Notes: a model not told the origin generated them from the sequence alone. Numbered from the stretch's first letter, positions 28,453 through 62,572 are shown. The stretch is 64,000 bases of DNA from Actinomycetota bacterium (GCA_003598015.1 QZKE01000065.1:8280-72279), one strand, 5' to 3'. A program made the numbers and translations.

Positions 28453-28473
28453 GGTTCTTCCACAAGAAGTGTG
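28453..28473 (-). repeat. 21-bp palindromic motif copy (reads CACACTTCTTGTGGAAGAACC towards the corrinoid gene)
   Basis: 18/21 match to CACACTTCTCGGAGAAGAACC. Followed after 8 nt by a perfect TATAAT (28444-28439, minus strand). 47 nt upstream of the ATG at 28406. Confidence 0.6.
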
Positions 28474-28643
28474 AGTAAGTGATGGTGAGATTGACCCGGC
28501 AGCAAACCAGGCTTCTCGCGCAAGAAGAAATGAAATCCACCCCGCCTCAGGGGCGCATGTCCCGGACCCCGGCACCATGAGGCTGCATGCGCGACCGCGA
28601 TGCGGTTGAGGCGGATGAGGTTGCCTCTTTCAGGCCGGGGGGA

Positions 28644-29540
28644 TTATTCCGGAACCCGCGAGCCGTTGAGGAATTCGATGATGTATGAGTTCACCAACTC
28701 GGGCCGCTCCTGCTGTACCCAGTGGCTGCAGGAGGGGATGTACTTGATCTCCAGGGGTCCCTCGACCTCGTCGTGGAAATCATAGGTGAGTTCCTTCCCC
28801 AGGGCCTGGTCTTCCTCGCCCCAGATGACAAGGGTGGGGCAGCGCACCTTCGACGCTACGCCTCCACCCTGGCGGGGAGAGCGCAGGAACTGCCGGAAAG
28901 CGGCGCGGTAGTAATTGATGCCTCCCGTCAATGCTCCGGGTTTGGCGGCGGCTTCCTTGAACATGGCGATATCGTGGACGCTGAAAGCGCTCTTGTCGAT
29001 GGCCCAACCCAGGAAAGCCCTGGCGATAAGATCATAGTCGCGCGCGCGCATGACTGCCTCGGGTAGATAGGGAAGCTGGAAGAGGAACATGTAATAAGAG
29101 CGGCGCAACTGGGCACGGTTGTTCAAAAGATGGCGCATGAGTACGGCGGGGGGCGGGCAGTTGAGTATGATCAGGCGATCGACCATATGCGGGTAGAAGG
29201 CGGCGAAGGGCCAGGCAACACCACCTCCCCAGTCGTGGGCGACGATTATGGCGCTGGATTCGCCCAGATGATGTATAAGGCCCTGGATGTCTCCCATGAG
29301 CGCGTTCAAGCGGTAGTGTCCGGCGCCCACGGGTTTCTCACTCTGGTTATACCCGCGCATATCGGGTGCTACAACGCGGTAGCGTTCCGCCATGGCCGGT
29401 ATCTGGTGCCTCCACGAATACCAGAACTCCGGGAAGCCGTGGAGCATGAGCATAAGGGGACCTTCTCCTGCGGTCACGTAATGCAAGCGGATGTTGTTCA
29501 CATGGGCGTATGCGTGCTTCCAGGGCTCGTTCGCGTTCAT
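28644..29540 (-). CDS. Alpha/beta hydrolase (epoxide hydrolase / haloalkane dehalogenase-like fold)
   Basis: HGFPEFWYSWRHQ, nucleophile elbow VAHDWGG, and C-terminal SCSHWVQQERPELV (catalytic His). AAGGGGG RBS. Confidence 0.85.
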   Translation of the reverse strand: MNANEPWKHAYAHVNNIRLHYVTAGEGPLMLMLHGFPEFWYSWRHQIPAMAERYRVVAPDMRGYNQSEKPVGAGHYRLNALMGDIQGLIHHLGESSAIIVAHDWGGGVAWPFAAFYPHMVDRLIILNCPPPAVLMRHLLNNRAQLRRSYYMFLFQLPYLPEAVMRARDYDLIARAFLGWAIDKSAFSVHDIAMFKEAAAKPGALTGGINYYRAAFRQFLRSPRQGGGVASKVRCPTLVIWGEEDQALGKELTYDFHDEVEGPLEIKYIPSCSHWVQQERPELVNSYIIEFLNGSRVPE

Positions 29541-29585
29541 TACAACCCCCTTCTCTCACGGAAAGGTTGAACCGTTATAAAGATA

Positions 29586-29606
29586 GCCTCTTCTCCGAGA
29601 AGCGTG
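29586..29606 (-). repeat. 21-bp palindromic motif copy (reads CACGCTTCTCGGAGAAGAGGC towards the hydrolase gene)
   Basis: 18/21 match to the consensus. TATAAC (29579-29574, minus strand) lies 6 nt downstream. 46 nt upstream of the ATG at 29540. Confidence 0.6.
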
Positions 29607-30010
29607 AGTTGGCTTCGGAGTCTTGGAGGGCCAGGTCTTGCATCCTGAATTCTGGAGAAACGGCCGGCATGGAACGGTCAGATGGCAGAAGTACAGGATT
29701 CAACTTCTGACCCACCCCTATTTGTTCCAGTCTCACCACTCGCATTTCTCGCAATATTCATGCCTTCGCACATGACCATCATACATTCTATATCACGAAG
29801 CCTCGGCCCGGGTATGACGGGGAGCAGTGCGTTGGCGGGAGCAGTAAACGATCGGAGGTGGCTGAAATACTCCCGGGGATGCGCCCGTGTTGGGGCCGGC
29901 AACGTCACGGGAACGTCCGCCCTGCGCGCTCGCTAAGGCGGAGGGGACCAGCAGCACGGGAGGTATAATCAAAACGAGCATAACGCTGAAGCGGCGAGAG
30001 GGCGACTGTA

Positions 30011-31330
30011 ATGCGTAGAGATACGGAGAGACCGGGGATAGAGGAGCTGGAGGCCGACATCGTCGCACCTCCCGCCGTTATAACGGGTCGGGCGATGCCG
30101 GGTAGCGGAGTACTCTCGGCCTTCCGATACCGCGATTTCAGCGTCCTGTGGTCCGGCGCTTTCGTCTCCAACCTGGGGACCTGGATCCATACCACGGCTT
30201 TGCTATGGTTCGTCAAGGAGCTGACGGATTCCAATGCCTGGGTTGGCGCGGTGAACTTGGCCAGCTATCTGCCGGTATTCCTCCTAGTGCTGTGGGCGGG
30301 ATCGCTGGCTGATCGCCTGGACCGCAAGAAGCTCATCATCGCCACTCAGGCGGTGATGATGCTGGGAGCTTTCGTACTGGCGATATGCGTAGGGGCGGGA
30401 TGGACGTCGATGGCCTTGATCATGGTCATCACCGCGGTCATGGGAGTGGCCTTCGTATTCAACTTTCCGGCATGGCGAGCAATAATCCCCGACCTTGTAT
30501 CCCAGGAGGATATGCTGAATGGCATCGCCCTGGATGCGGCGCAGTTCAACCTGGCACGCAGTGTCGGACCCCTGCTGGGTTCCCTGATCGTCGGCATCTG
30601 GAGCGTAGAGGTTGCCTTCTACGTGAACGCAGTCAGTTTCCTCGCGGTTATCGTGGCCCTCTTCATGGTCAGGACGCGAACTCCGGCTTCTTCCCAGCGG
30701 TATGGAACGTGGAAACATGTCACGCAAGGCGTCGTATACGCGCTGGGACAGCACTGGTCCAGGAACCTGCTGGCGGTGCTGAGCGTGATCTCCTTCTTCG
30801 GGCTTTCCTTCCTGGTTCTACTTCCCGGTGTATCCAAGGACGTGCTCGGGCGCGGGTCGCTCGGATACGGTGTGCTGTTGGGGGCGGTGGGGGTCGGGGC
30901 AGTTATCGGAGCACCCCTCGTTACCCTGCTGCGCAGACGTATCCCGGAACGCACCATTATAAGGTATACGACCCTCGGCTTCGGTCTCAGCCTGCTGGCT
31001 GTATCTTTCTGCCGCGACCTCTGGCTCTGCCTTATCCTGACCACGGGCACCGGCATATGCGGGCTCATGCTGAGCGCAACCGTGAACACGGTGATGCAGG
31101 CGAGGGTCGAACGTGAGATGAGGGGGCGCATGATGAGCCTCTATATCCTGGTCTTCCAGGGTATATTCCCCATCGGGGGATTGTTCCTGGGGTTGATCTC
31201 GGATTTGCGCTCGGTGCCGTTCGCCATGTGCATGGGCGGGATCGCATGTTCGCTTGCGGGTTTTCTGCTCATCCTCTTCCCCGCGTTCTTGAGGGATGCC
31301 GTTTCCAGCACGGAATCCGCGTTAATGTGA
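30011..31330 (+). CDS. MFS transporter (MFS_3 / enterobactin-exporter-like)
   Basis: About 12 TM segments. N-terminal FRYRDFSVLWSGAFVSNLGTW and GSLADRLDRKKL are typical of this MFS subfamily. ATG 30095 is an alternative start. Confidence 0.85.
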   Translation: MRRDTERPGIEELEADIVAPPAVITGRAMPGSGVLSAFRYRDFSVLWSGAFVSNLGTWIHTTALLWFVKELTDSNAWVGAVNLASYLPVFLLVLWAGSLADRLDRKKLIIATQAVMMLGAFVLAICVGAGWTSMALIMVITAVMGVAFVFNFPAWRAIIPDLVSQEDMLNGIALDAAQFNLARSVGPLLGSLIVGIWSVEVAFYVNAVSFLAVIVALFMVRTRTPASSQRYGTWKHVTQGVVYALGQHWSRNLLAVLSVISFFGLSFLVLLPGVSKDVLGRGSLGYGVLLGAVGVGAVIGAPLVTLLRRRIPERTIIRYTTLGFGLSLLAVSFCRDLWLCLILTTGTGICGLMLSATVNTVMQARVEREMRGRMMSLYILVFQGIFPIGGLFLGLISDLRSVPFAMCMGGIACSLAGFLLILFPAFLRDAVSSTESALM

Positions 31331-31514
31331 TCACCGGACTGCATTGCGCGTGGTTTGCCCAGCATGAGAAGGCCATGAAAAAGCGGGCGCATGACAACGA
31401 TTCGTCATGACGGAAAAATATGCGGCTGCGGCGAAACGCGGCGGGATATGATAGCCTTTGCGAGTAGGGAGGATACGGGAACTACGATCCGGGCCGGCGC
31501 ACGGAGGATCAAGC

Positions 31515-31997
31515 ATGAGCGATGATGAAATGCCACGGGTTGAATTGAAGACGGCGGTGGAGCCTCCACTCGGGATCAATACCTATCAGGCCATACCGGA
31601 GATGGTGGAATTCCATCGCCTTGGCCCGATACCGCTCAGCACCCGGACCCTGGCACTGGGGCGTATGCTGCTGAGTCTGGACGGCGATGGTGGTGAGGTC
31701 GTGGGCCTGCAGTCGTATGTCAAGACGGGTAGATGGAAGAGCGAGCAGGAGCCTCTGCCCGCGGTCGACGCCGCAGGCTGTCTGGTCATCCTGCTTCCAA
31801 GCGGAGTGGATGACCCCGTCTTCATAGCCGCGGAACCTGGCTTTGCGTGGCACGAGGATAGCCGCTTTCTGCGTATCTCTCTGGGTGGAGAAACGGCCCT
31901 GGTCTTCCAGGTAGCGAGCTGCCTCCTGGCAGGGGTGGACCGCGCGGGACGCCTCACCGATATCTGGATGTTGGATCTCGACCTGAGTCTCGAATAG
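31515..31997 (+). CDS. Hypothetical protein
   Basis: ATG 31515 follows a GGAGGA RBS (the track start 31458 lies upstream of it). 160 aa, no recognisable motif. Confidence 0.5.
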   Translation: MSDDEMPRVELKTAVEPPLGINTYQAIPEMVEFHRLGPIPLSTRTLALGRMLLSLDGDGGEVVGLQSYVKTGRWKSEQEPLPAVDAAGCLVILLPSGVDDPVFIAAEPGFAWHEDSRFLRISLGGETALVFQVASCLLAGVDRAGRLTDIWMLDLDLSLE

Positions 31998-32339
31998 ATA
32001 TCCGCCCCCTGGCCGGTAAATTCACGGATAACCTGCTTCTCCTGTCGCTCCTGGTGCTCCGGCCCTCACCCAGGAGAAAGGCGGCTCCCACGCCGCCCTC
32101 ACCGGCAGGTCTCCCCATTGCCACTAAGATGATATCGCCCGCCGTCTCGACGTGTACGTCGCCGAGGGCCGAAAGCCAGAGCGCTCAATCCATCGCTTCG
32201 GAGTGACCGCCGGCAGGCATATTCCCGATTCAGCCGACATCAGGATACCGGGAAGGAACGCATGCGCGGATAAACGAAATCTATAGTAGGAATATGCTGA
32301 GCCGTGCCCTCCGGCGGTTAACCTTAAGTGGGGAGGTAG

Positions 32340-33404
32340 ATGCGGATGAAGATTTGCCGGGAGTGCGGCGTGCCCTACGCCGTAAGCAAGGAGCTTGTAT
32401 GGCACGAGAACGGGGTGATCACTCAGACCAGGGATCCCGATCATCGCATGATCTTCTACGAGTCGGATAACCTCGACAACCTTTTTATGGGCATAGAGGA
32501 GATAATCGGCGTGCCCATCGAGCACATCATTATCGAGAGCAAAAGGCGGGAAGTAAAGGAATACGTGGAGAGGCTTCTTCCGGCCCCCGTGCGCAAAGCC
32601 GCACGCTACGGGGGCATGGGCATGATGATACGCAAGCTGAGCAACGTGGGCAGGGCTTACGGCTACGGTAACGTGCGCATGGCCGACAGGAAGATCCGCA
32701 GGAGGAACGATGACTACGTAACCAGGGTCATCGACAACCCCCATGCGATACTCTTCTATTGCGGAGAGAACCTCGGGGCATGGGAGGCGATAGACGGGAG
32801 GGATAGCCGCGTCAGGTATGAGGAGATAACCGCGAACACCTTCGAGGTTACGAACTACATAGGAAAGCATCCCATAGAATTGCACGAACGACTGCGTACT
32901 CCCACCTATGCCCGCAAGCAAGGGGATATATTCTTCGAAAGATGCCCGTTCTGCCGCGTACCCCTTGACGTGGCATCCTGCAAGTGGAACCCGGAACTGG
33001 GGACTATTAACGACCCTTCCACCGGCAGGAGGATGGCGATATTCGGCCCCGCGGGTTTTGAGGCCGTCCTGGACGACCTGGAGGTCGAACTGGGGGCGGC
33101 CATACCCGAGACGGTTATCGAGGCTCAGAGACGCTACATCGTGAAGTCCCTGTCGCCACAGGATCTGGGCAAGGGCAAAGACGCTTTCCGCAGGATGTTC
33201 GCCTTGCGCGGCTTGGGCAACCTCGTGAACCTGGAGGTGTCGGAAGGTGGCATCTCGGCGACCATAGAGAACTCCTGCCTGCCCTTACTCATGGTGGGAG
33301 TGATGCAGGGTGCATGCGAGTCGCTGTTCGCCCACGAGAAGACGGGTTACGAGTGGGAGGCGCGGCAGGATGGCGACCTCAACATATCCATCTACAGGCG
33401 CTAG
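32340..33404 (+). CDS. Uncharacterised tandem CxxC / V4R-like domain protein, paralogue 1
   Basis: Two internal repeats start at CRECGVPYAVSKELVWHENGVI and CPFCRVPLDVASCKWNPELGTI. The C-terminus IENSCLPLLMVGVMQGACESLFAHEKTGYEWEARQDGDLNISIY resembles a V4R-type ligand-binding domain. RBS GGGGAGG. Paralogous to 40032-41102 and 54040-55188. Confidence 0.7.
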   Translation: MRMKICRECGVPYAVSKELVWHENGVITQTRDPDHRMIFYESDNLDNLFMGIEEIIGVPIEHIIIESKRREVKEYVERLLPAPVRKAARYGGMGMMIRKLSNVGRAYGYGNVRMADRKIRRRNDDYVTRVIDNPHAILFYCGENLGAWEAIDGRDSRVRYEEITANTFEVTNYIGKHPIELHERLRTPTYARKQGDIFFERCPFCRVPLDVASCKWNPELGTINDPSTGRRMAIFGPAGFEAVLDDLEVELGAAIPETVIEAQRRYIVKSLSPQDLGKGKDAFRRMFALRGLGNLVNLEVSEGGISATIENSCLPLLMVGVMQGACESLFAHEKTGYEWEARQDGDLNISIYRR

Positions 33405-33450
33405 GCGGACGTACCGGCAGTAGTAACCCGCGCCTACCCGTCGAGCAATT

Positions 33451-34971
33451 TCAATTTATGAACTGGGCTTTCAGCTCTTTTTTCAGAATCTTTCCTGTCG
33501 CCGTACGTGGCAGGGCCTCGACGAAAGCGACTTTCTTGGGTATCTTGTACTTGGCAAGCCGGCCCTTACAGAAGTCTATTACCTCCTGCTCGCTTACCTC
33601 GATTCCGGGAGCGGGAACCACGACCGCCAGCCCCACCTCTCCCCATTTTTCGTCCGGGACACCGATCACGCCGGCATCGGCGATCTTTTCGCAGGCCATG
33701 AGCACGTCTTCCACCTCGGCGGGATATACGTTTTCGCCGCCGCTGATGTACATATCCTTACGCCGATCTACAAGATAGAGATATCCTTCGTCGTCGATGT
33801 AACCCATATCGCCCGTATGCAGCCATCCGTCCGTTATGGACTCGGCTGTGGCCTCGGGAAGCTGCCAGTAGTCCCGGATAACGTTGGGACCCTTTACCCA
33901 TACCTCTCCCATCTCGCCCCGGGGCAGGTCGTTCCCTTCCACATCCATTATGCGGATATCGGTATGAAAGACGGGCTTCCCGCATGAGCCCAATTTGCGC
34001 AGGGCATCCTCGGTGCGCAGCGCGGTGATGGCGGTGGCCGTTTCGGTCATGCCGTAGCCCTGGTTAAAAGTGATGCCGTGTTTGAGCCAGGTCTCGATGA
34101 GAGGCCGTGGGCAGGGGGCGCCACCGGCGATGAAGAAGCGCACGCTGGAGTAATCGGTACTGTCGAATTCCGGCACCTGGGTCATGAGCAGAAACATCAC
34201 GGGAATACCGAACATGAAAGTTACCTTCGCTTCCTCGATGATCTTGAGCGACTCCACGGGGTTGAAAAAGCGCTGGATCACAACGCGAGCGCCCACATAT
34301 AGAGCGGGAAAAGCGGAAACGGCAAGGCCGCCTATATGAAAGAGCGGGGCACTGGCGATACTGGCGTCAGAGGAATCGAAAGCGTACATGTTTATGGAGT
34401 TGATGGCGTTCCACTGCGTGTTACCGTGGAGTATGGCCGCCCCTTTCGGTTTGCCGGTGGTGCCGGAGGTATACATAATGAACTGGACGTCGTCGAGGGT
34501 GACCTCCGCATCGGGTACCGGTTCCTCCTCCGATCGCCCGGCCACCCACTGCTCATACAGAGGATCGGAAGAATCGCCTCCTTCGAGCTCGCGGATATAC
34601 TGACGCATGGAGGGGATTTTCCCCCTGAGGGCTTCGGCGGTCTCGGCGAACTCAGGCGAGTAGATGAGCCCGATGGGGCTGGAATCGTTGAGGATATACT
34701 CCAGCTCCGGCGGCGCCAAGCGGAAATTGAGGGGAACCATTATCCCGCCGAGTTTACTCATGGCCAGGAGCACCTCCAGGAAGACATTGGTGTTGGCGAG
34801 AAGCGCCGCGAAGCGCGTTCCCTTTCTCACCCCCAACTCCTGCAGGGCATGGGCGAGGCGGTTTATCCTGGTGTTGAACTCCCCTTTGCTCAGCGAGAGG
34901 TCCCCATATTCTATATAGGGTTCGTCGGGATAGCGCGCCGCCCAGCGTGCGGGCCATTCACCTACGTTCAT
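33451..34971 (-). CDS. AMP-dependent acyl-CoA synthetase/ligase
   Basis: AMP-binding motif YTSGTTGKPKGA, plus GYGMTE, TGDMGYIDDEGYLYLVDRRKD and LPRTATGKILK. ATG 34971 is preceded by AAAGGAGG at 7 nt; the track start 35013 is less likely. Confidence 0.92.
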   Translation of the reverse strand: MNVGEWPARWAARYPDEPYIEYGDLSLSKGEFNTRINRLAHALQELGVRKGTRFAALLANTNVFLEVLLAMSKLGGIMVPLNFRLAPPELEYILNDSSPIGLIYSPEFAETAEALRGKIPSMRQYIRELEGGDSSDPLYEQWVAGRSEEEPVPDAEVTLDDVQFIMYTSGTTGKPKGAAILHGNTQWNAINSINMYAFDSSDASIASAPLFHIGGLAVSAFPALYVGARVVIQRFFNPVESLKIIEEAKVTFMFGIPVMFLLMTQVPEFDSTDYSSVRFFIAGGAPCPRPLIETWLKHGITFNQGYGMTETATAITALRTEDALRKLGSCGKPVFHTDIRIMDVEGNDLPRGEMGEVWVKGPNVIRDYWQLPEATAESITDGWLHTGDMGYIDDEGYLYLVDRRKDMYISGGENVYPAEVEDVLMACEKIADAGVIGVPDEKWGEVGLAVVVPAPGIEVSEQEVIDFCKGRLAKYKIPKKVAFVEALPRTATGKILKKELKAQFIN

Positions 34972-35118
34972 GATCGTACCTCCTTTGTGATTCGTCTGAC
35001 CGCCCGGCATCATGCAGGAAAGCTCTCTCCGGGCGGTCCGGACCGACGTTCACTGTTTCCTCGCAGCATCCCCTCCTCGAGTGAGAAACCCGACCCCAAC
35101 TCCACCATATTATCCACC

Positions 35119-35139
35119 CACACTTCTCGGAGAAGAACC
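35119..35139 (+). repeat. 21-bp palindromic motif copy (consensus CACACTTCTCGGAGAAGAACC)
   Basis: Perfect copy between the ligase start (34971) and the arsC-like stop (35227). Flanked by AT-rich hexamers on both sides (TAATAT on the minus strand at 35112-35107; TATATT on the plus strand at 35143-35148). Confidence 0.6.
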
Positions 35140-35226
35140 AAATATATTATTTACCGCCGGCGTAGAATTGAAACGCCATCCTGCAACTCGTAACTCAACC
35201 CCGAAAGGCGTTGTCTCGGCGGAGGT

Positions 35227-35616
35227 TCAGCCTTCGAGTTCACGCACGAGCTCCGCGACCATGGAGGCAATCCTGTCCCTGGTCTCCCTCATCGTGGCCA
35301 TATCTCGCCGGCCGGGGTCGTCTATGAGCCATTCCTCCAGACGGTCTCTGGCGGGGAAGACACTCTTGACTATGCAGCCGAAAGAGATGATGCGGCGGAA
35401 TCCCTGCAGGCTGGATAGATAGAGCGGCTTCGGGACCGCCAGCGAGATGTCTATCCCCACTTCCGCCATGGCCTCGACGGCGAGAGGATTTACGGCCGCT
35501 GCGGGATGCGTGCCAGCGCTCTCCGCTATCCAGGCGTCCGCCAAGCGGTTGAAGAACGCCTCGGCTATCTGGCTGCGCGCGGCATTCTCGCCACATACGA
35601 AGAGTATCTTATCCAT
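35227..35616 (-). CDS. Low-molecular-weight phosphatase-fold protein, arsenate reductase (ArsC, thioredoxin-coupled type)-like
   Basis: MDKILFVCGENAARSQIAEAFFN (CX5R P-loop)...ESAGTHP...NPLAVEAMAEVGIDIS...ISFGC. The track TTG start at 35625 is less likely than ATG 35616. Confidence 0.8.
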   Translation of the reverse strand: MDKILFVCGENAARSQIAEAFFNRLADAWIAESAGTHPAAAVNPLAVEAMAEVGIDISLAVPKPLYLSSLQGFRRIISFGCIVKSVFPARDRLEEWLIDDPGRRDMATMRETRDRIASMVAELVRELEG

Positions 35617-35637
35617 GCGCCCCAAGCCTTTGCGTTA

Positions 35638-35658
35638 GGTTCTTCTCCGAGAAGTGTG
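35638..35658 (-). repeat. 21-bp motif copy = left TIR of the MITE-like element (faces the arsC-like gene)
   Basis: Reverse complement is CACACTTCTCGGAGAAGAACC (21/21). 22 nt upstream of ATG 35616. Confidence 0.6.
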
Positions 35659-35850
35659 GGTAGAGACTAGTGAGCAACATCGTCAGGCATAGGGGTCGGC
35701 CCTGGACTTATGCCTGACCCATATGTCCAGCATATATGAATGGGGATTTGAGTGGCGCCACACTTCTTTCCTCCTGCTCCTCCTGGCTGTTTCAGGCATA
35801 AGTCCAGGGCCGACCCCTATGCCTGACGCCCACACTCCTCGGAGAAGAAC
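35638..35850. mobile_element. MITE-like non-autonomous element (213 bp) with 22-bp TIRs and a 9-bp flanking direct repeat
   Basis: Left end GGTTCTTCTCCGAGAAGTGTGGG and right end CCCACACTCCTCGGAGAAGAAC match at 21/22 as inverted repeats. Perfect 36-37-nt subterminal inverted repeats lie at 35682-35718 and 35792-35827. TTTGCGTTA is present at 35629-35637 and again at 35851-35859. Confidence 0.6.
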
Positions 35851-35851
35851 T
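35831..35851 (+). repeat. 21-bp motif copy = right TIR of the MITE-like element (faces the His-rich gene)
   Basis: CACACTCCTCGGAGAAGAACT (19/21). 54 nt upstream of ATG 35905. Confidence 0.6.
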
Positions 35852-35904
35852 TTGCGTTATCGCCACGACTACCTGGGTTCAAGGCAATATTATATACTCA
35901 TCTC

Positions 35905-36243
35905 ATGAGTTATCATGAAGACAGATCGCCCTTGCTGCTGAAGGTGGCCTTGCGCCAGGCCCTACGGCGCATGCAGGGCGAGGCCGATGCTTTTTCGCAG
36001 TATGAAGCCCTGGCCGGCAACCTGGGCTGGGAGGAAGTCGCAGATGCGGCGGCCGCCACGAGGAAAGCCCTGGCGGATGCGGTCGAGGGGGTGGCCGATG
36101 CCATCGAGGCGACCGTCAAGATCCAGGCCGCCGCCACCCACGAGCACCCTGAAGGGCACGAGCACCCTGAAGGGCACGAGCACGAGCACGGCCATGCTCA
36201 CAGCCATCCCCACGCACATCCCCACGACCACGAACATACCTAA
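35905..36243 (+). CDS. Histidine-rich hypothetical protein (putative metal-binding)
   Basis: 112 aa, alpha-helical N-part and the C-terminus THEHPEGHEHPEGHEHEHGHAHSHPHAHPHDHEHT. TATACT at 35893-35898 lies 6 nt before the ATG, suggesting a leaderless mRNA. Confidence 0.65.
   Translation: MSYHEDRSPLLLKVALRQALRRMQGEADAFSQYEALAGNLGWEEVADAAAATRKALADAVEGVADAIEATVKIQAAATHEHPEGHEHPEGHEHEHGHAHSHPHAHPHDHEHT
36139..36186 (+). repeat. 18-bp in-frame tandem repeat (CACGAGCACCCTGAAGGG x2 plus partial copies)
   Basis: Identical copies at 36139-36156 and 36157-36174 encode HEHPEG HEHPEG. Degenerate CACGAGCAC units follow. Confidence 0.85.
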
Positions 36244-36320
36244 GGGCAGCGAGAGAAGAATTCTGGTGCAGGCCGGAACGCCGTTAGCGACAAGGGCAGT
36301 CGAAAAGGCGCATTGACCGG

Positions 36321-37085: not shown

Positions 37086-37249
37086 GCTATCCTCCTTGCT
37101 CTCGAGCCGCCGATGGCTACCGGGCGTGTTGAGCGGGAATGTCGCCACGTGTACTTGCGGTTGGCTCGCGCCCCCGCAGAAACACTGCGCTTACCGAATA
37201 TACGCTTGCGGATCCCTGGACGGGGCTAGACGGGGGAGACCGGCGACGG

Positions 37250-39686: not shown

Positions 39687-39707
39687 GCTTCTTCCCCGAG
39701 AAGTGTA
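39687..39707 (-). repeat. 21-bp palindromic motif copy (reads TACACTTCTCGGGGAAGAAGC towards the DUF2207 gene)
   Basis: 18/21 match. AT-rich GATGATATC follows on the minus strand (39683-39675). 44-92 nt upstream of the candidate starts. Confidence 0.55.
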
Positions 39708-40031
39708 GGGGCAACCTGCACGATCGCTCAAGGAGGGTTTGCACGGCATGGTAGCCCGCCCATAGCCGCAGATCGAGCGACAGAGGATGGAAAAGACGGA
39801 GAACGCTTCGCTTTTGCGCTTCCGCGCACATTCCAGAGCACCTCGGCGAAGTGGTAGAATCCCTATAAGCAACCTTGTATTAGTGTTGGCTTCAATGTTG
39901 AAAAGCTGGAGAGATGCGATGGTTGTGGAAGAAATGGCCTTGCTGCTCTATGTAGCCTGCACCTCCGTTGATACGGGCTTCTCCAGCCAGCCGAAGAAGC
40001 CATCCCTGAGCGCGAATCATAAGGAGTCAAG

Positions 40032-53729: not shown

Positions 53730-53753
53730 GAGGGGGGCGGAAACGCCCCCCTC
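53730..53753 (+). terminator. GC-rich hairpin after the ACAD pair
   Basis: GAGGGGGGCG-gaaa-CGCCCCCCTC perfect 10-bp stem with a GNRA-like loop, 14 nt after the stop. Weak U-tract (GTTCTAT). Confidence 0.45.
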
Positions 53754-54039
53754 GTTCTATATGTGGTCGTCACGGTAAAGGCCCCAGGGGGAGCGATTGC
53801 CGGGCAAAGGGGTTGATCCTGGGATTATGCAGGAGATCGCCGATATTTTGACTATCCTTGAGCGAACATCATGGAGAAGAACCTGATAGAATATTCTCGC
53901 AAACAGGTAAATTACGGAAGCGACACAAATGCGGGGAACAGGGATAAGTAATGTTGCCGGATACCCCGATCAGATCACGACGGGGCCAGGCTTTTCGTCA
54001 GCGGGAAAGGGAGAGGCGCGACTATTCCGGGATGAGGTT

Positions 54040-55188: not shown

Positions 55189-55211
55189 GCGCGGAACGGC
55201 GGATCACAACG

Positions 55212-55604
55212 TCAGGCTTCAGGCTGGCTGTTTTCGTAATCCTCCCCCCATTCCTCCTGGAGGAGGTCGAAGACCTCCTTGACCTCGCCGCGGATCTCCT
55301 TCTTGCGGTTTTCCTCCTTGAGACGGCGGCGTGTCTTGAATTCCGGGTCGTGGAAGACCTTGTATATGAGTTGTCCGGCATCCTCCCCCTCGAAATCCCC
55401 GCTGAGGAACAGGGCCTGCCGGTTCTCCTCGCCGTCTTTATGCCACCTCTCAACCGCGATACCGTAGTAGCGGCAGAGGACGTTCTTGGCCTTGATCAAC
55501 TCGAACTCTTCTACCCCGAACTCGCATACGAGGTCCTCATCATAAACGAAGCCCTTATCCAGGATGAGCAGGGCAATTTTCTCGGCGAGTTCTTGCGGAT
55601 CCAA
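55212..55604 (-). CDS. Hypothetical acidic protein
   Basis: 130 aa. TTG start preceded by AAAGGGG at 7 nt. Charged C-terminal half (KTRRRLKEENRKKEIRGEVKEVFDLLQEEWGEDYENSQPEA). No recognisable domain. Confidence 0.5.
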   Translation of the reverse strand: MDPQELAEKIALLILDKGFVYDEDLVCEFGVEEFELIKAKNVLCRYYGIAVERWHKDGEENRQALFLSGDFEGEDAGQLIYKVFHDPEFKTRRRLKEENRKKEIRGEVKEVFDLLQEEWGEDYENSQPEA

Positions 55605-55694
55605 GTCAACACCCCTTTGAATGCGGCTTTACAGACACTATTATATCGGTATCATGGTGCAGAGGATTGAGGCCGAACAAGGAATCGTGATGAC

Positions 55695-58184
55695 ATGCGT
55701 AGTACAAGAGCGGCATATGCGAAGATCCTGGCGGCCATGGCAGCCCTGTTCCCCGCGGCGGCAGCCTCAGCGGTCGCCTTTACCCGCAGGGCGTTGCCGC
55801 ACGTCGCGGGAGAACTGAGGCTCCCGGGAATCGCGCAAGAGGTGCGCATCGACTACGACCGCTGGGGTGTACCCCATATACGTGCGCACTCCCTGGACGA
55901 CGCCCTTTTCGCGCAGGGATTCGTGACCGCGCAGGACCGCATGGTCCAACTCGAGCTCATGCGGCGCATCGGCTGCGGTGAACTGGCAGCGGTCATGGGG
56001 AGGAAAGCGCTTGCAATCGATATGTTCATGCGGGATATCGGCCTGCACCGCACGGCATGCAGGATAGAGGGAAACCTCGGTGATGATACCCGGCGTTATC
56101 TCGAAGATTATTCGTCGGGTGTCAACGCGTACCTGTGCAGCAGGGGCAAGACTTTGCCCCTCGAGGTCATCATGCTGGCCGCAGGGAGGCCGAGGCCATG
56201 GACGATTGTGGACGGCCTGGTGTGCCTGCTCTTCTTCGCTTGGACCATGGATGCCACCTGGACGGCGGACCTCATGCGGGGACGCCTCATCCGGGCACTG
56301 GGAAGGGAGCGGGCCGAGGTGCTCCTGCCCGCAAGCGGGCCCGGCGTCGTTCCGGTGGTGGACCACGATGGTGAAAGGCAACAGCATCGCGTGGAGCCCG
56401 CGCTGGATTGCGAAGTGGAATTCATGGCATTCGACGAAGACAATCCGTCCTGGATGGTGAAGAATATGTGCGTGCACGCCCAGGGCTCGAACAACTGGGT
56501 CGTTGGCGGTTCGCGTACTACTACCGGCAAGCCGCTTCTCTGCAACGATCCCCACGTCCAGCACACCATTCCCACCCTGTTCTACCTGTGTCATGTGCGC
56601 AGCGACGATCCCCAGTGCGATTTTATCGGGGCATCGTTTCCCGGCATACCGGGAGTGCTCATGGGAAGGAACGGGCACATAGCCTGGGGAGCCACCAGCC
56701 TCTGCCCCGATGTCGTAGACCTGTTCATCGAAACCTTTGCAGACGGTGACAGCCAGAGGTACAAGGCCGGAGACGGGTGGATGGAAGCGGATCACCACGA
56801 GGAAACGATAAGGGTCTTTCCGGGTCGCAAAGTAAAGCGGAAGGTGGTCTCGACCCGCCACGGACCACTTATCGCCAGGCACGGCGACAAGGGACTGTCC
56901 CTCAAATGGGCGGGGCATGAAGCTGAGAACGACTCCGCCGGGTGCTTCGTACATATAGCCATGGCCACGAACTGGAAGGAGTTCAATAGCGGCCTCGAGA
57001 GGTATTGCGGGCCGGCCGTGAATATGGTCTATGCGGACGAGGTCGGCAACATAGGTTATACGGCCGCTGGACGCATACCCATACGCGAAGGGCATGACGG
57101 TTCCGTACCGCTTCCCGGCGAGGACCAGCGATACGATTGGAGAGGATACATCCCCGCCGCCGAGCTTCCGCGCGTAATCAACCCGGAGAGGGGATGGATC
57201 GCCACCGCCAACAACCAGGTTGTGGGAGGGGGTTATCCCTATTTCATCACCTCCATGTGGGAGCCCTCCTGCCGCTGGAACCGTATAGCCGAGCTGCTCG
57301 AGGAGAGGGAGAGGCACGGGCCGCATCATATGCGCGAGATGCAGGGAGATGTCTTCACGTTCCACGGCAGCGTCCTGCGGCGCGAGATCTTACGGGCCCG
57401 TGAGAACTGGAATGGCGCGAGCGCTCAAGCGGAGAAAGCCGTGGATATTCTCGCGCAATGGGATTGCCGCGCTACCTCGCAGAGCGTCGCGCAATCAGTA
57501 TATTTCTTTACCTGGCGGGTACTCACCGAGCGGCTCCTGCGCCATCGCCTTGGGCATCGGATGTATTTCGAGTACACGACCTCCTTCTTCAACATCAACC
57601 ATGCGGTGGAGAGTATACTATCGGGACGCCTCGCGGAATGGCTTCCTCCCTCAGCCGAAGATTTCGACGCACTACTCCTGCAGTGTCTGGAGGAGGCCGT
57701 AATGAGACTGCAGGTCAGATTCGGTACCGCGGCCATGGAGGAGTGGAGCTGGGGTAGGTTGCACAGCCTGGAGATACCCCATTTCCTGGCCGGGATCAGG
57801 CCCCTGGGCCGGCTGCTGAACCTGGGGCCGTCGGCGCTGGGTGGAGATGGAGAGACGGTAAACAGCGCTTTCAGCGAGGGAGACCCCACCATACAGGTAC
57901 TGGCACGTTCGGCCCTGGGCGGCGCATGCGACGTCCCCTTCCTTCCCCGCTTCCACTCAGATCGTGTCTATGCGGGACCGGTGTTCAGGATGATAGTGGA
58001 CTTGTCCGCGCAGGGAAGGTCGCTATGGTGCCTGGATACGGGTCAATGCGCGAACCCGCTGAGCCCCTTCTATCGCAACTTCTTCACCGCGTGGAAAGAG
58101 ATCGACTATGCCACCATGGCCTTCAGGGAGGACGAAGTGCGGGAGTATACGCGCAGCACCCTTTGGCTTGAGCCAGGGTCCTGA
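55695..58184 (+). CDS. Penicillin acylase family (Ntn-hydrolase) protein, possible acyl-homoserine-lactone/beta-lactam acylase
   Basis: 829 aa. N-terminal signal-like AKILAAMAALFPAAAASAVAF. Processing/nucleophile motif QGSNNWVVGGSRTTTGKPLLCNDPH. Family-typical WGVPHI and GFVTAQDR. Confidence 0.9.
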   Translation: MRSTRAAYAKILAAMAALFPAAAASAVAFTRRALPHVAGELRLPGIAQEVRIDYDRWGVPHIRAHSLDDALFAQGFVTAQDRMVQLELMRRIGCGELAAVMGRKALAIDMFMRDIGLHRTACRIEGNLGDDTRRYLEDYSSGVNAYLCSRGKTLPLEVIMLAAGRPRPWTIVDGLVCLLFFAWTMDATWTADLMRGRLIRALGRERAEVLLPASGPGVVPVVDHDGERQQHRVEPALDCEVEFMAFDEDNPSWMVKNMCVHAQGSNNWVVGGSRTTTGKPLLCNDPHVQHTIPTLFYLCHVRSDDPQCDFIGASFPGIPGVLMGRNGHIAWGATSLCPDVVDLFIETFADGDSQRYKAGDGWMEADHHEETIRVFPGRKVKRKVVSTRHGPLIARHGDKGLSLKWAGHEAENDSAGCFVHIAMATNWKEFNSGLERYCGPAVNMVYADEVGNIGYTAAGRIPIREGHDGSVPLPGEDQRYDWRGYIPAAELPRVINPERGWIATANNQVVGGGYPYFITSMWEPSCRWNRIAELLEERERHGPHHMREMQGDVFTFHGSVLRREILRARENWNGASAQAEKAVDILAQWDCRATSQSVAQSVYFFTWRVLTERLLRHRLGHRMYFEYTTSFFNINHAVESILSGRLAEWLPPSAEDFDALLLQCLEEAVMRLQVRFGTAAMEEWSWGRLHSLEIPHFLAGIRPLGRLLNLGPSALGGDGETVNSAFSEGDPTIQVLARSALGGACDVPFLPRFHSDRVYAGPVFRMIVDLSAQGRSLWCLDTGQCANPLSPFYRNFFTAWKEIDYATMAFREDEVREYTRSTLWLEPGS

Positions 58185-58385
58185 CGCATGCGTTACGACC
58201 CGCCCCACTGCTTCATGGGCGTTATGGCGAGGTAATGGGAAGCGGGGTCGGGCCTTGGCATCCCGTCTCATGCCCTCGCGCAAAGAAGAAGCACCGACAA
58301 GACGGACCGCGAGACCCGACCCACCCTACGGGGAAGAGGTCGAATTGCGAGGTACTGGTGCGGTCGAAGATCATAGCGCAAGGTC

Positions 58386-58787
58386 TCAGCGGTGGGTCGA
58401 GAGGTTGGTGATAAAAGACCTGCTGCCGGTCTCCTCTTTCAGATATTCGTCGAATTCGTCCTCGCTGACGTCGATGCCTGAATGCAGAAAGAGGGTATAG
58501 AGGTAGAAGCTCATGTAGGTCCATTCCCGCTGCAGGTCTTCCATGGCCTTGTCCCGCTTGCTCTTGATCGGTATGAGACGTTCTCCCTCGTAATCCAGCT
58601 CGTTTATCTTTCTTCTCAGGTCCCTGCAGGTTCGGATGGCGTCGCGCGTCTCGTATTCAAGATCCATCTTGCTCATATTGTTGATATTACGTATCCATGG
58701 TGGGATGACCTCGGATGCCTGACCGTGTTTGTGGAGGTTGTAATAGGAGGCCAGTTTTTTCAGGACTTCCTCGGGGACTTCACGCAT
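58386..58787 (-). CDS. Hypothetical protein (last gene of the synthase/aminotransferase operon)
   Basis: 133 aa. ATG preceded by GGAGGG overlapping the upstream gene's stop. Visibly lower GC. No recognisable motif. Confidence 0.55.
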   Translation of the reverse strand: MREVPEEVLKKLASYYNLHKHGQASEVIPPWIRNINNMSKMDLEYETRDAIRTCRDLRRKINELDYEGERLIPIKSKRDKAMEDLQREWTYMSFYLYTLFLHSGIDVSEDEFDEYLKEETGSRSFITNLSTHR

Positions 58788-58798
58788 ATCATGCCCTC

Positions 58799-60106
58799 CT
58801 ACACGCTCTTATCTACCTTGAGATGGGACGGGTCCAGGGTAAGGATCTTTCGGGCAAGGTCGGGATAGCGGGCTATGAATAGCAGTTCGTCCTCGACCAG
58901 TGGTTTCTGCGTCGTAACGTTCGCATACCTCACGAGCTCCAGGATATCCCTGGCCTCCACCTCGCTCTGGAACTCCACCTCGAGTTTTTCGTAGACGTTG
59001 CGGAACCCCTTGATGCCCGAATACTCGCCCAGTGTGATGTTGCGCCCCGTCTCGATCACCTCCGGCTCCCCACGGCCGAGTTCCTCATAATCGTATAGCT
59101 CGTAGTTGCGCCTGCTCTTGAGGGCTCCGTCGGCGTGGATGCCGGATTCGTGCGCGAATGCATTGTCGCCGACACCGGGTTGATTAACGGGTATGGGTAC
59201 GGCAAATGCATAGGAAGCATACTTGGCGGTCTTCCAAGCAGCCATGAGGTTGATGGAATCGTCCAGGACCTCCTCGCCGTCGAAAAGGGTCGACTTCTTT
59301 ATGGCCAGGATTGTGGAGACGAGGTCGGCGTTGCCGGCCCTTTCACCCATGCCGTTGATGGTGGTGTTTATATAGGCGTTTACGCCCCCGTCCAGCGCCC
59401 CTTTTGCGCCGGCGACGGAATCTCCGATGGACATTCCGAGATCGTTATGGAAGTGCAGTTCGATGTCCATAGCGGTCTCTTCCGCCAGGTTCCTGATGCG
59501 ATCATAGACGGTGAAGGGATCGTTGTAACCCAGGGTGTCGCAGTAGCGCAGGCGGGCCGCCCCATGTTCCTTGGCCGCCAGGGTGAACGCGATGAGGTGT
59601 TCGTCGGAGGTGCGGGAGGCATCCTCCGCGTTGACCCCGATATCCTCGAAGCCGAGCTCCCTGGCTACCTGCAGTGCCTCTACCATCAGGTTAATCACGT
59701 CCGCGAACCTGTAGCGGCCGTTCCATTTGCCCTGTATCATCTGGTCGGACGTAGAGATGGAGATATTGATGTATTTGAGCTTCGGCACCAGTTCCCGCGC
59801 CAGCCTGACATCGCTGGCTACGGCACGCACCCAACCGGACAGGCGCGTGTGATGGATGGCCCCTCTCTCCACTAGTTCCAGGTTGGCCTGGAGGTAATTA
59901 CGCTCGTGACGGGTGGTGGGAAAACCGAATTCGCTCTGCCAGATGCCCATCTCGTCCAGGAGCATATTGAGCATGGTCTTTTCCAGCTTGGCCAGCCCGA
60001 GGCGTGAAGTCTGTACGCCGTCACGGTTGGTCACGTCTACGATATATATGCGCTTGCGGCCATCGCCGCCGCCGCTGTTCGCTGCATCACCCGTGTGAGC
60101 CGACAT
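58799..60106 (-). CDS. HMGL-like family enzyme (2-isopropylmalate / homocitrate / citramalate synthase-like)
   Basis: 435 aa. DRE-TIM barrel start IYIVDVTNRDGVQT (a variant of DTTLRDGEQ), HFHNDLGM and TINGMGERAGNA metal-site motifs. The start abuts the aminotransferase stop (60106/60107). Confidence 0.8.
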   Translation of the reverse strand: MSAHTGDAANSGGGDGRKRIYIVDVTNRDGVQTSRLGLAKLEKTMLNMLLDEMGIWQSEFGFPTTRHERNYLQANLELVERGAIHHTRLSGWVRAVASDVRLARELVPKLKYINISISTSDQMIQGKWNGRYRFADVINLMVEALQVARELGFEDIGVNAEDASRTSDEHLIAFTLAAKEHGAARLRYCDTLGYNDPFTVYDRIRNLAEETAMDIELHFHNDLGMSIGDSVAGAKGALDGGVNAYINTTINGMGERAGNADLVSTILAIKKSTLFDGEEVLDDSINLMAAWKTAKYASYAFAVPIPVNQPGVGDNAFAHESGIHADGALKSRRNYELYDYEELGRGEPEVIETGRNITLGEYSGIKGFRNVYEKLEVEFQSEVEARDILELVRYANVTTQKPLVEDELLFIARYPDLARKILTLDPSHLKVDKSV

Positions 60107-61405
60107 CTATAGCCTCCCGCTACGCCTGTCGTGTATGTCCAGGTCCTTCACGGCAGTATAAAGTATATCAAAGAGGTCCTTTATCTGCTCTCTCTCCAGG
60201 CAGGAGAAAGCTATGCGTATGTCCCTTTCGCCGATGGCGATGATGCCCACGCCGTAGGCATCCAGCAGGTGTCTGCGCAGGCGTTCCGCGTCGGTATGCA
60301 GCAGCTCCAGACACATGAAATAGCCGGCATTGAAGGGGTAAGGGCGGAAAGCTTCGGCATATACCGGTTCCTCTAGCACGCTCTTGAGTTCCGCGTACCG
60401 CTCCTTGAGCAGCAGGAATTTTTCACCCTTCTCTTCCTCGTAACCGGCCGACCTCATGGCGTGGATGAGCAGGGACTGTGACGGCGTTGAGCTCTTGGAG
60501 ATGGTTCCGCGTATCAGCCCACCGGTTTTCCTCTCCAGGGCGTTGTATACAGCATCGCGGTCCCCCTGCATGGCCAGGGAAAAGGTGATGAAGCCCAGGC
60601 GGAAGCCCCATACGTAGTCCTCTTTCGTGGGCCCATCAACTTTGATGGCGGTGAGGCGAGGGTGCGCATCTGCGATGAGGGAGAAGAGGGATTCCCTGTA
60701 CACCCCCTCGTCGTAGAAGAGGCCGGTGTAGGCGTCATCTACGCAGGCAACGATATTGGCCCCGGCTTCAGCCGCGTCAACGAGCGCCTCCGCCATGGCC
60801 GATGCTTCCTCGGGGTATGGGGAGTAGCCGGTCGGGTTATTGGGGAAGTTCAGGAGCACCAGGACCTTGCGGCGGTCCTTGTTGGAGAGCAGGGCGGCAC
60901 GGAAAGAGAGGGCGTCAAGACCACCCTCGGGCGTAAAAAACGGATACATGCGTATATCTGCGCCCCGGCGAGTCCCGAAGATCATGCGGTAGTTTCCCCA
61001 CATCTTGTCTGGCAGCAGCAGGATGTCGCCGGCGTCGCAGAACATATCGGCATATATGCTCAATCCATGGGTCAGCCCGTTTGTGACGATAGGCAGGGAG
61101 AAGCTCTTTTCCGCAAGGCCGGGGTTCAGCTTCAACTGGTGCTCGCGCCAGATGTGCCTCAGGTCAACCAGACCGGTGGTAGGGGCATAAGGGAAGGTCT
61201 CCTCGGGCTTGAGATATTTTATATACTTGCGCAGGCTGCGCAGGTAGAGCGGTTTACCCTTCAGGGTGGCGATGCCGATGGTGGCATTATAGCGATATGC
61301 CGACTTCTTGGCTTCCGCGGTCTGAGTGAGTATTCCCCGCGGGAAGAACAACTCGCGTCCCAGGGCCGAGAGCGCATCGTATACCATGGGCGCATGGGCT
61401 CTCAA
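60107..61405 (-). CDS. Class I/II PLP-dependent aminotransferase (aspartate-aminotransferase-like)
   Basis: About 430 aa. YNATIGIA, FPNNPTG, a KEDYVWGFRLGF-type Lys region, and family-typical length. The start is uncertain: TTG 61405 or ATG 61387, while a strong AAAGGAGG sits at 61453-61446. Confidence 0.8.
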   Translation of the reverse strand: MRAHAPMVYDALSALGRELFFPRGILTQTAEAKKSAYRYNATIGIATLKGKPLYLRSLRKYIKYLKPEETFPYAPTTGLVDLRHIWREHQLKLNPGLAEKSFSLPIVTNGLTHGLSIYADMFCDAGDILLLPDKMWGNYRMIFGTRRGADIRMYPFFTPEGGLDALSFRAALLSNKDRRKVLVLLNFPNNPTGYSPYPEEASAMAEALVDAAEAGANIVACVDDAYTGLFYDEGVYRESLFSLIADAHPRLTAIKVDGPTKEDYVWGFRLGFITFSLAMQGDRDAVYNALERKTGGLIRGTISKSSTPSQSLLIHAMRSAGYEEEKGEKFLLLKERYAELKSVLEEPVYAEAFRPYPFNAGYFMCLELLHTDAERLRRHLLDAYGVGIIAIGERDIRIAFSCLEREQIKDLFDILYTAVKDLDIHDRRSGRL

Positions 61406-61717
61406 CGTCTCGTTGAGCTCTATTGCCAGCGGGTCGATGGTATGACCTCCTTTTGTGGTACGTCCCCGGTGCGATAATCTGCGGGCTGAAATGAAGCGGT
61501 TTCACGCCGCGATTTTCATCAATTATATAGGAAGGAGGTGACCGCGTATATAATGCCTGGGCTCGTACGATGCACTCTCTCGCCACGGCGGGATGGCACT
61601 GGCGCAAGCCCAGAGACGGAGAACGTCGTTATCCCTCGCCCAGCTGTATAGTAAGTCACCGTTTACTAGAGTCCACCCGCGGAAAGCCGCCGGAGCACCG
61701 TCTCAGGCAGCCATGGT

Positions 61718-62380
61718 TCAGGGCTTTCCCAGCCTTATCTTGGCGATCTCCCAGGCATAATCGTACAGGTGCATGCCCTTGGAAAGGGCAAGAGTCTCTC
61801 CGGGAGCCACCCCGATCTCATCAGCCATGTATTCCTTGAGCAGCTGTATACCCGCCAGGTTGCTGGGGAAACCCGCCCAGAGGTCCCAGGAGCGGAAGTA
61901 GACGACGAAATGCAACTTGCCCTCCTCGGGATAGATACGCGTATCTATCTGGCGCAGGCAGGGAGGGTCCTCGAGGTAGATGGCATCTGCATCGCACACC
62001 GCCATGCAGGCCTGGTTGGTGCCGAACCCCTCCTCCCGGTACATGCGGATGACCTCCTGGATCTGCTTTTCCAGGTACATACCATATGTGTAATCTTCGT
62101 TATCCGCTTTGGAACAGGAAGAGCACAGTTTCTCGAGGTATTCCTGTACATAATCCATGTCGGTAGGCGGAGGGAGGCCGATACCCGGGGGGATATCGGG
62201 GATAAGGGGGCGCGTCTCCGGGTACGCCACTTTGACCACTACGAAATCGTACTCCATACGGCGGTTGCCCTTGAAGCTGCCCCGGTCGATGCGATACTCA
62301 TGCCCTTTCTCAAAGATGTTGTAGACGCACTGGAACCAGGCGTCCGGCAGATCCCTTGCCTCTAAAAAGGTGATGTCCAT
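61718..62380 (-). CDS. Thymidylate synthase family protein, archaeal/methanogen-type homologue
   Basis: 220 aa. Conserved Cys context EDPPCLRQID (ThyA nucleophile position), RSWDLWAGFPSNL (cf. ThyA RS.D...G.PFN) and LSKGMHLYD (cf. GD.H.Y). Much shorter than bacterial ThyA. Confidence 0.7.
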   Translation of the reverse strand: MDITFLEARDLPDAWFQCVYNIFEKGHEYRIDRGSFKGNRRMEYDFVVVKVAYPETRPLIPDIPPGIGLPPPTDMDYVQEYLEKLCSSCSKADNEDYTYGMYLEKQIQEVIRMYREEGFGTNQACMAVCDADAIYLEDPPCLRQIDTRIYPEEGKLHFVVYFRSWDLWAGFPSNLAGIQLLKEYMADEIGVAPGETLALSKGMHLYDYAWEIAKIRLGKP

Positions 62381-62551
62381 ATCCGTCTCGAGTCCCCCTT
62401 GTCATCAGAAACGTTATTCAACGCCACATCCATTTAATCCTGCGTTCATTCATATTACCACCGTGCAGTGACGTGAGAGGTGGCGTGAAAGGCCGCCCCA
62501 TGGGCGGTTCAAGCTCGGGCTTGACTTTTACCGTTCCCATCATTATTCACG

Positions 62552-62572
62552 CACACTTCTCGCATGAGAACC
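62552..62572 (+). repeat. 21-bp palindromic motif copy (CACACTTCTCGCATGAGAACC) upstream of the activase gene
   Basis: 18/21 match. TAGAAT at 62575-62580. 60 nt upstream of ATG 62632. Also sits just downstream of a TTGACT-17-TATTCA pair (62521-62549). Confidence 0.55.

Follow-up and report, generated by a model that had tools for sequence, protein, structure and literature searches.

Why should one 21-nt palindromic sequence recur in front of several unrelated genes of a single bacterial contig? The question is raised by the window analyzed here, a 64,000-nt stretch (C6:8280-72279) of G000, an Actinomycetota metagenome-assembled genome (MAG) that is 89.5% complete and comprises 3.79 Mb in 104 contigs at 61% GC. 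A first-pass annotation of the window described seven copies of the motif, CACACTTCTCGGAGAAGAACC, and proposed that they are either operators of a dimeric regulator, defining a regulon of accessory genes, or the promoter-bearing ends of a small mobile repeat family. [quoted passage not shown]

The primary sequence observations hold. All seven copies are present at the coordinates and on the strands claimed, with zero to three mismatches each, and 100 dinucleotide-preserving shuffles of the window yield none (copies expected = 0). By crude gene calls, seven out of seven are intergenic, as had been stated. The core CTTCTC-G-GAGAAG is indeed a perfect inverted repeat (6-1-6, 13 bp), and the AT-rich hexamers described next to three of the copies are all there: TATAAT at 28444-28439, TATAAC at 29579-29574, and TAGAAT at 62575-62580. 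Since the copies are the ends of repeated elements, they are not independent sites. The conserved unit is also longer than the 21 nt first described, comprising 24 nt (ACC plus the 21-mer).

Across the whole of G000 we find 195 copies of the motif at ≤4 mismatches, compared with two in the reversed-genome control. The position profile shows 24 conserved nucleotides, then 11 AT-rich nucleotides (A+T of 67-82% at nine of the 11 positions, against a background of 39%), and then a sharp drop to background; read inward, the full TIR is 5′-GGTTCTTCTCCGAGAAGTGTGGGT. There are 53 outward-facing pairs, in which a minus-strand copy is followed 58-227 bp on by a plus-strand copy. The pairs are flanked by 8-bp direct duplications (target-site duplications, TSDs), perfect (8/8) in 16 pairs and mostly 6-7/8 in the remainder; the 27 best pairs comprise these 16 and 11 with 7/8. 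When the reconstructed targets are aligned, they reveal an AT-rich window of ∼14 bp, made up of 3 nt, the 8 duplicated nucleotides, and 3 nt. The paired elements are noncoding and fall into size classes of 58-105, 166-175, and 186-227 bp, and the family as a whole occupies ∼143 loci and 17.5 kb. Inverted pairs, 8-bp TSDs, size classes, and copy number are the defining properties of a MITE family, and the elements are further characterized by a length <500 bp, by TIRs matching those of an autonomous IS, and by insertion polymorphism between relatives. Single-linkage BLAST clustering of the end sequences was tried as a route to subfamilies and collapsed to one cluster of 136, and the subfamilies are therefore described from the paired elements instead.

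Within the palindrome there are 0-3 compensated changes per pair, against 10-44 broken ones. This near-absence of compensatory changes led us to reject selection for a hairpin, and it indicates that the palindrome was inherited from a master copy, with no upkeep of a hairpin or dimer site copy by copy. An Rfam search finds no family match for the elements; the sole match in the window is a tRNA gene (27586-27670), which lies just downstream of the corrinoid-protein gene.

The autonomous partner of these elements can be traced through its transposase. A Pfam search of G000 returns one good match to DDE_Tnp_ISL3 (PF01610), at C50:23382-24096 (E = 1.7e-55), and the reading frame of this transposase enters a TIR copy at C50:23337-23357 and has its stop codon inside it. 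The C50 sequence is a remnant of 966 bp, 5′-truncated and frameshifted, that corresponds to positions 369-1334 of a full IS at 87.5% identity. By protein search we recovered intact transposases of 408-411 amino acids (aa) at 86-88% identity, with both PF13542 (HTH_Tnp_ISL3) and PF01610. Five metagenome contigs that carry these transposases contain a 1334-bp element with the left inverted repeat (IRL) GGTTCTTCTCCATAAAGTATGGGTG and the right inverted repeat (IRR) GGTTCATCTCCCAGAAGTGTGGGTAG; it has one open reading frame (ORF), encoding a 411-aa DDE transposase, with the stop codon within IRR. The two longest contigs show 8-bp TSDs, TAAAATGT (L078) and CTTTTTAC (L079). In the remaining three the flanks are mismatched and two contigs have one flank in common, a pattern to be expected if distinct copies of a repeat are merged during assembly.

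In ISfinder, ISL3 elements are described as single-ORF elements of ∼1.2-2.3 kb, with TIRs of 15-39 bp that start with GG and an 8-bp target duplication. The partner found here fits this description in its size (1334 bp), its single ORF (with PF01610 and PF13542), its GG-initial TIRs, and its 8-bp TSD. The MITEs have subterminal sequences matching those at the two ends of such an IS, …CACCATACTATTCACC / TIR for IRL and …GGCCTGACGGTAGCTACC / TIR for IRR, which identifies the MITEs as internal-deletion derivatives. A search of G000 for an intact IS by way of TIR pairs 0.8-6 kb apart gives only two candidates (C15, 2241 bp; C6, 5554 bp), neither of which has matching duplications, and BLAST of G000 with the 1334-bp IS returns just the 966-bp remnant and a 153-bp fragment. 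No full-length IS is assembled in 60 relatives, which contain fragments and contig-end stubs only; the intact copies all come from metagenome contigs. We also note an 85%-identical ISL3 transposase (P0007) on a 1.8-kb contig of a Candidatus Hadarchaeum (archaeal) MAG, for which a binning artifact is more likely than cross-domain transfer.

The copy number of the motif varies greatly among close relatives. At ≤3 mismatches, the ten same-genus genomes have 146 (G000), 129 (G007), 123 (G009), and 11 (G006) copies, and the six others zero to five; more than 120 copies are thus present in only three out of 10. Searched at the same threshold, other genera, families, and classes have essentially none. 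The exact 21-mer occurs in just three other genomes among 185,579 species representatives, all of them uncultured Actinomycetota MAGs, and in those three it often lies ∼32 nt from a contig end, a signature of assembly breaks at a repeat. In several relatives, G011 (C10, C26, C38, C4, and C77) and G002 (C17 and C20) among them, contigs stop 37-40 codons or less from the end of the transposase, at 95-100% identity, so that G011 and G002 appear to hold several near-identical, unassembled, and probably active IS copies. Presence/absence polymorphism, together with relatives' contigs that break off within IS ends of 100% identity, would point indirectly to transposition of the family. The expansion is lineage-specific, and its distribution is unlike that of a conserved regulon.

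In the window, the following elements and native sequences account for the seven copies, for the two half-copies also claimed by the first-pass annotation, and for the adjacent −10 boxes, which are kept across the genus:

28439-28445: native −10 box TTATAAT
28453-∼28531: degenerate mini-MITE of ∼80 bp, with an outward TIR at 28453-28476 (minus strand) and a partner TIR with indels at 28507-28531
29586-∼29759: degenerate MITE (∼170 bp) of the 166-175-bp subfamily, with a TIR at 29586-29609 (minus strand) and a decayed right TIR at 29734-29759
35089-35139, plus strand: half element, consisting of IRL-type subterminal sequence and a perfect TIR at 35116-35139
35630-35637 and 35852-35859: TSD of the 214-bp MITE, the 8-bp duplication TTGCGTTA
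35638-35851: intact MITE of 214 bp, with left TIR GGTTCTTCTCCGAGAAGTGTGGGT at 35638-35661 and right TIR at 35828-35851
35683-35717 and 35792-35826: two 35-nt hairpin units inside the 214-bp MITE (interior repeat)
39687-39709, minus strand: solo diverged TIR with three mismatches, adjoining a conserved block upstream of the DUF2207 gene
39826-39870, plus strand: conserved native promoter-like block of 45 bp (…CTCGGCGAAGTGGTAGAAT…) upstream of V4R-like paralogue 2, outside the repeat family
39856-39864: native −10 box TGGTAGAAT
53873-53883, plus strand: eroded TIR remnant GGAGAAGAACC, abutting the extended −10 box
53884-53892: native extended −10 box TGATAGAAT
62521-62572, plus strand: half element of ∼46-52 bp, ending in a TIR with three mismatches 2 nt upstream of the TAGAAT of the HgdC-like activase gene
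62573-62580: native −10 box GGTAGAAT

Five of the window loci have empty orthologous sites in same-genus genomes. The clearest case is the intact 214-bp MITE, which has 93-96% identical copies elsewhere in G000 and a predicted RNA fold of −137.7 kcal/mol (z = −17). In G007 and G009 the site is empty and the divergent arsC-like and His-rich genes are ∼25-50 nt apart; the difference in spacer from G000 is accounted for by the 214-bp MITE plus one copy of TTGCGTTA. The mini-MITE at 28453-28531 sits 8 nt upstream of the TTATAAT box of the corrinoid-protein gene (∼28439-28445). It is missing in G008, G009, and G006, and ATTATAA, which reads TTATAAT on the coding strand, is kept in all five genomes aligned, G000 included. 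The ∼47-nt insertion at 62521-62572 is missing in G006, G004, G007, and G009, all four of which keep ctGGTAGAATTA. The element at 29586-29759, which is 76-77% identical to elements on C65, C98, and C17, is absent from all five same-genus genomes compared, and the solo TIR at 39687-39709 is found in G000 alone among five aligned genomes. At 35089-35139 the half element has 88-95% identity to the left halves of 82-88-bp mini-MITEs, and there is no partner end within 400 bp. The genes concerned are also less "accessory" than had been supposed, since at least four genomes of the genus preserve their order, each on one contig.

The two half-copies have different origins. The 11-mer at 53873-53883 does derive from a TIR. 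Exactly the same junction (GAACC / TGATAGAAT; …GGGAGAAGAACC / TGATAGAAT) carries a complete TIR, CCACACTTCCGGGAGAAGAACC, in G007, from which the 11-mer is recognized as the eroded remnant of an insertion shared with G007. G006, G008, and G005 have no TIR at this site and keep TGATAGAAT. Exact copies of the 11-mer number 94 in G000, and 23 of these lie outside catalogued TIRs (≤5 mismatches), compared with four in the reversed-genome control. The second half-copy (∼39842-39869) is no copy at all. The sequence reported, CTCGGCGAAG-tgg-TAGAAT, falls within the native block at 39826-39870 (GCACATTCCAGAGCACCTCGGCGAAGTGGTAGAATCCCTATAAGC), which aligns in G006 (96% identity) and, more diverged, in G007, G008, and G009, with a TIR present there in none of the four. 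Local alignment had suggested 39842-39851 as the partner end of the TIR at 39687, a candidate we rejected because the block is native and kept in genomes that lack the TIR. The 96% identity of the block in G006 contrasts with 73-77% for the genes on either side; the block probably combines a conserved promoter with a regulator site, and it would make a better operator candidate than the TIR.

These comparisons also bear on the AT-rich hexamers, which would be part of a promoter carried by the repeat in one of the two proposals of the first-pass annotation. Because the hexamers are kept in genomes without the insertion, they are older than the insertions and are targets rather than cargo. Judged by this conservation, the −10-like hexamers beside the motif (TTATAAT, GGTAGAAT, and TGATAGAAT) are native promoter or target DNA. 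The idea of mobile repeat ends is borne out and that of promoter-bearing ends, as it was stated, is not. In the activase case the TIR ends 2 nt before TAGAAT, so that the −10 box itself makes up the 8-bp target expected to have been duplicated (GGTAGAAT, 62573-62580). The recurrent form (T)G-n-TAGAAT suggests extended −10 promoters in this lineage.

The place of the TIR relative to the native promoter varies, from the spacer to positions upstream of the core promoter and to the 5′ untranslated region (UTR). The probable 5′UTR case is the element at 29586-29759: it lies between the start codon of the hydrolase gene (29540) and a conserved box, CAT(A/C)TTACA (−10-like when read on the coding strand), which is ∼55-75 nt from the ATG in relatives and beyond the element, at 29776-29788, in G000. 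The 214-bp MITE sits just upstream of the core promoter of the His-rich gene, where TATACT, 6 nt before the ATG (window 35893-35907), is outside the MITE and conserved in G007 and G009; this supports a leaderless mRNA for this gene. On the other side the arsC-like start codon is only 22 nt (35616-35637) from the end of the MITE. Either the promoter of the arsC-like gene in G000 would then be within the MITE or on its far side, or expression of the gene would be poor.

Two further sets of repeats were observed at these loci. The 35-nt hairpin unit inside the 214-bp MITE, TCAGGCATAAGTCCAGGGCCGACCCCTATGCCTGA, belongs to a second repeat family with 148 copies in G000, mostly in inverted pairs ∼146 bp apart (window 35683-35717 and 35792-35826; C15:2230-2482, C85:5268-5522, C67:2480-2728, C11:40066-40272, and others). 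Many of its pairs and triplets have no ISL3 TIR nearby, and this independence makes the 186-227-bp "MITEs" look like composites of an ISL3 mini-MITE and an independent palindromic element. The corrinoid-hydrolase spacer of G007 (L105, G007:C103 ∼5760-6000, equivalent to window 28450-28640) holds another inverted repeat, GGCAACACTTTGGGGTCAGGCCTCAGAAAT … reverse complement, together with an ISL3-type TIR. The differing insertions mark this spacer as an insertion hot spot and indicate at least three MITE-like families in the genus.

For the tests of operator function, gene context was taken from our own simple codon-usage gene caller (3053 genes, 85% coding), in which a few calls are wrong-stranded and distances are approximate. 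Of the 195 ends, 184 are intergenic; the corresponding share is 16% for random positions and ∼63% for 11-mers that are very AT-rich. Among the 184 ends, 120 face a gene start and 64 a gene end; the start-facing share (65%) does not differ from that of random AT-rich 11-mers (61.5%, P = 0.33), and the genome-wide enrichment at gene starts that a regulon predicts is thus not seen. Distances from the start codon vary widely around a median of 106 nt. There is neither a fixed position nor an enrichment beyond background, and conservation at orthologous promoters is likewise lacking: the motif is missing there in relatives, which keep the −10 boxes, and one site only (53873) is shared, with G007 alone. 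No TTGACA-like hexamer was found by inspection within the TIR at a constant 16-18 nt from the flanking boxes.

A chromosomal operator of a dedicated dimeric transcription factor, controlling an accessory-gene regulon, would explain the perfect 6-1-6 palindromic core and the copies upstream of genes near −10-like hexamers. It leaves unexplained why paired copies bound short mobile elements with target duplications, why the same sequence terminates a transposase-encoding IS, and why genomes of a single genus have anywhere from 0 to 146 copies; the motif is also missing at the orthologous promoters of same-genus genomes, its position relative to the native promoter varies, and the 35% of intergenic ends that face gene 3′ ends are at chance level for AT-rich sites. 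We regard such a regulon as extremely improbable. To an origin as repetitive extragenic palindromic sequences or bacterial interspersed mosaic elements (REP/BIME), mobilized by an IS200/IS605-like Y1 transposase (REP-associated tyrosine transposase, RAYT), or as structural RNA or terminator hairpins, we give next to no credence. The palindromic core, the intergenic location, and the very stable hairpins into which whole elements fold are in keeping with it, but 8-bp duplications and long TIRs are hallmarks of DDE rather than Y1 transposition, the partner is an ISL3 DDE transposase, and an RNA is contradicted by the lack of covariation in the palindrome and of any Rfam match.

The interpretation as the TIR of an ISL3-family IS and its MITEs has its own difficulties. 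No intact autonomous copy is assembled in G000 (itself 89.5% complete), and any current mobility there is putative. The IS that was found has TIRs two to four mismatches off the MITE consensus and without the perfect 6-1-6 palindrome, and the MITEs may in fact descend from another ISL3 element, closer to them and unsampled. In the window, several of the copies are single or decayed ends with no recognizable TSD. Lastly, TANNNT occurs ≤12 nt from the TIR in 47% of start-facing ends and 25% of 3′-end-facing ends (P = 0.004), an excess that fits −10 boxes as targets and would also fit selection for promoter function. This last point leads to a proposal that would be a layer on the MITE interpretation and not exclusive of it, namely that some of the TIR ends have been co-opted for a regulatory role. 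At many promoters the TIR would stand in for the native −35 and upstream region, and it would either form a hybrid promoter with the retained −10 box or be a shared site of repression by the transposase or by a derived helix-turn-helix (HTH) protein; a "regulon" carried by mobile elements would emerge. At the corrinoid, activase, and V4R-paralogue-3 genes the TIR does end 2-8 nt upstream of a conserved native −10 box, and the TIR at 35638 is close enough to the arsC-like start codon to place that promoter inside or beyond the MITE. There are also precedents: the 3′ end of an Enterococcus faecium ISL3 element provides a −35 and a strong hybrid promoter (PMC13216065), and Correia elements carry promoters (PMC10969869). 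Nonetheless, the TIR contributes no −35-like hexamer at a constant spacing, the TANNNT offsets are scattered (peaks at +4 and +9 account for only 13% each), one third of the ends face gene 3′ ends, elements are also found in a 5′UTR and upstream of core promoters, and copies decay without constraint. We therefore consider co-option unlikely, with a small residual chance, slight at its lower end, that the shared TIR serves regulation. A bolder version, in which the MITE burst has created a regulon, with a shared palindrome at −12 to −35 of dozens of promoters in three species and the transposase or an HTH fragment from a truncated remnant acting as a global modulator, seems to us distinctly improbable; if it were true, MITEs landing at −10 boxes would keep the box and swap the upstream DNA for a common 24-bp transposase-binding palindrome.

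Returning to the ISL3 TIR and its MITEs, a simple sequence of events would produce the observed pattern. The transposase would bind the palindromic TIR through its N-terminal HTH_Tnp_ISL3 domain, the sole candidate binder that the analysis points to, and would mobilize the MITEs in trans. The most AT-rich short segments of a 61% GC genome are presumably promoter −10 regions, and a preference for AT-rich targets, which would also lead to other AT-rich intergenic DNA, combined with purifying selection against genic insertions may have concentrated the elements just upstream of genes. As a result of this concentration the TIR mimics an operator overlapping the −35 and spacer region. Promoters hit in this way probably remain functional, since it is the −10 or extended −10 element on which actinobacterial promoters chiefly rely.

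Much of this has parallels in known systems. IS31831 and IS1411 are among the members of the ISL3 family. ISL3 elements show a tropism for AT-rich and intergenic DNA and insert beside retained native −10 boxes, and in E. faecium the ISL3 end donates a perfect −35 next to such a box (PMC13216065). The system found here resembles ISL3 ISs of this kind (E. faecium ISL3/IS1476-type, PMC13216065) in its ∼410-aa transposase with DDE_Tnp_ISL3 and HTH_Tnp_ISL3 domains, encoded by one ORF in 1.3 kb, and in its GG-starting TIRs, 8-bp duplication, AT-rich intergenic preference, and retained native −10 boxes beside insertions. It differs in its host, an uncultured anaerobic Actinomycetota, and in its TIR, GGTTCTTCTCCGAGAAGTGTGGGT, which encloses a 6-1-6 palindrome and shows no outward −35 of the TTGACA type, and in G000 the family persists almost wholly as MITEs.

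Like other prokaryotic IS-derived MITEs, the elements are short and noncoding, bear the TIRs of an autonomous IS, have TSDs that become less recognizable over time, form size subfamilies, insert into AT-rich intergenic DNA, can fold into strong hairpins, and vary in copy number among lineages. Promoter effects of MITEs are documented and strong hairpin potential is usual for them; the Correia, ERIC, RUP, and Chunjie elements are among those reviewed (PMC10969869). In contrast to Correia elements, no promoter internal to the element is evident here, and unlike other prokaryotic MITEs, the larger subfamilies are composites enclosing a second, 35-nt hairpin repeat. An ISL3-linked MITE of Methanosarcina acetivorans is 179 bp long and present in six copies (PMC3852290), compared with ∼143 loci and 195 ends here. 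The TIR resembles the operators of dimeric HTH regulators in its 13-bp perfect inverted repeat, in its position at about −12 to −35 relative to the −10 boxes of several genes, and in being almost certainly a protein-binding site, here putatively for the transposase. It differs from them in that it is not kept at orthologous promoters, occurs in inverted pairs with TSDs and at variable places, ends a transposase gene, and shows no start-ward excess beyond the AT-rich background. What is already known includes ISL3-family ISs, ISL3-linked MITEs, AT-rich tropism, and the promoter effects of ISL3 elements and MITEs; the new details are the lineage of the host, the sequence of the TIR, the number of copies, and the clear targeting of −10 boxes.

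For annotation of this lineage, the finding removes a false regulon and explains ∼195 palindromic sites, many contig breaks in the MAG and its relatives, and the AT-rich hexamers. For several genes the native −10 box (TTATAAT, GGTAGAAT, or TGATAGAAT) can be placed from its conservation with and without insertions. The family offers a clean example, in a GC-rich lineage, of AT-rich promoter cores as the destination of an ISL3-type transposase, and of a recent MITE burst at the species level. Its insertions may serve as strain markers, and they may provide a natural experiment on the tolerance of promoters to replacement of their upstream half.

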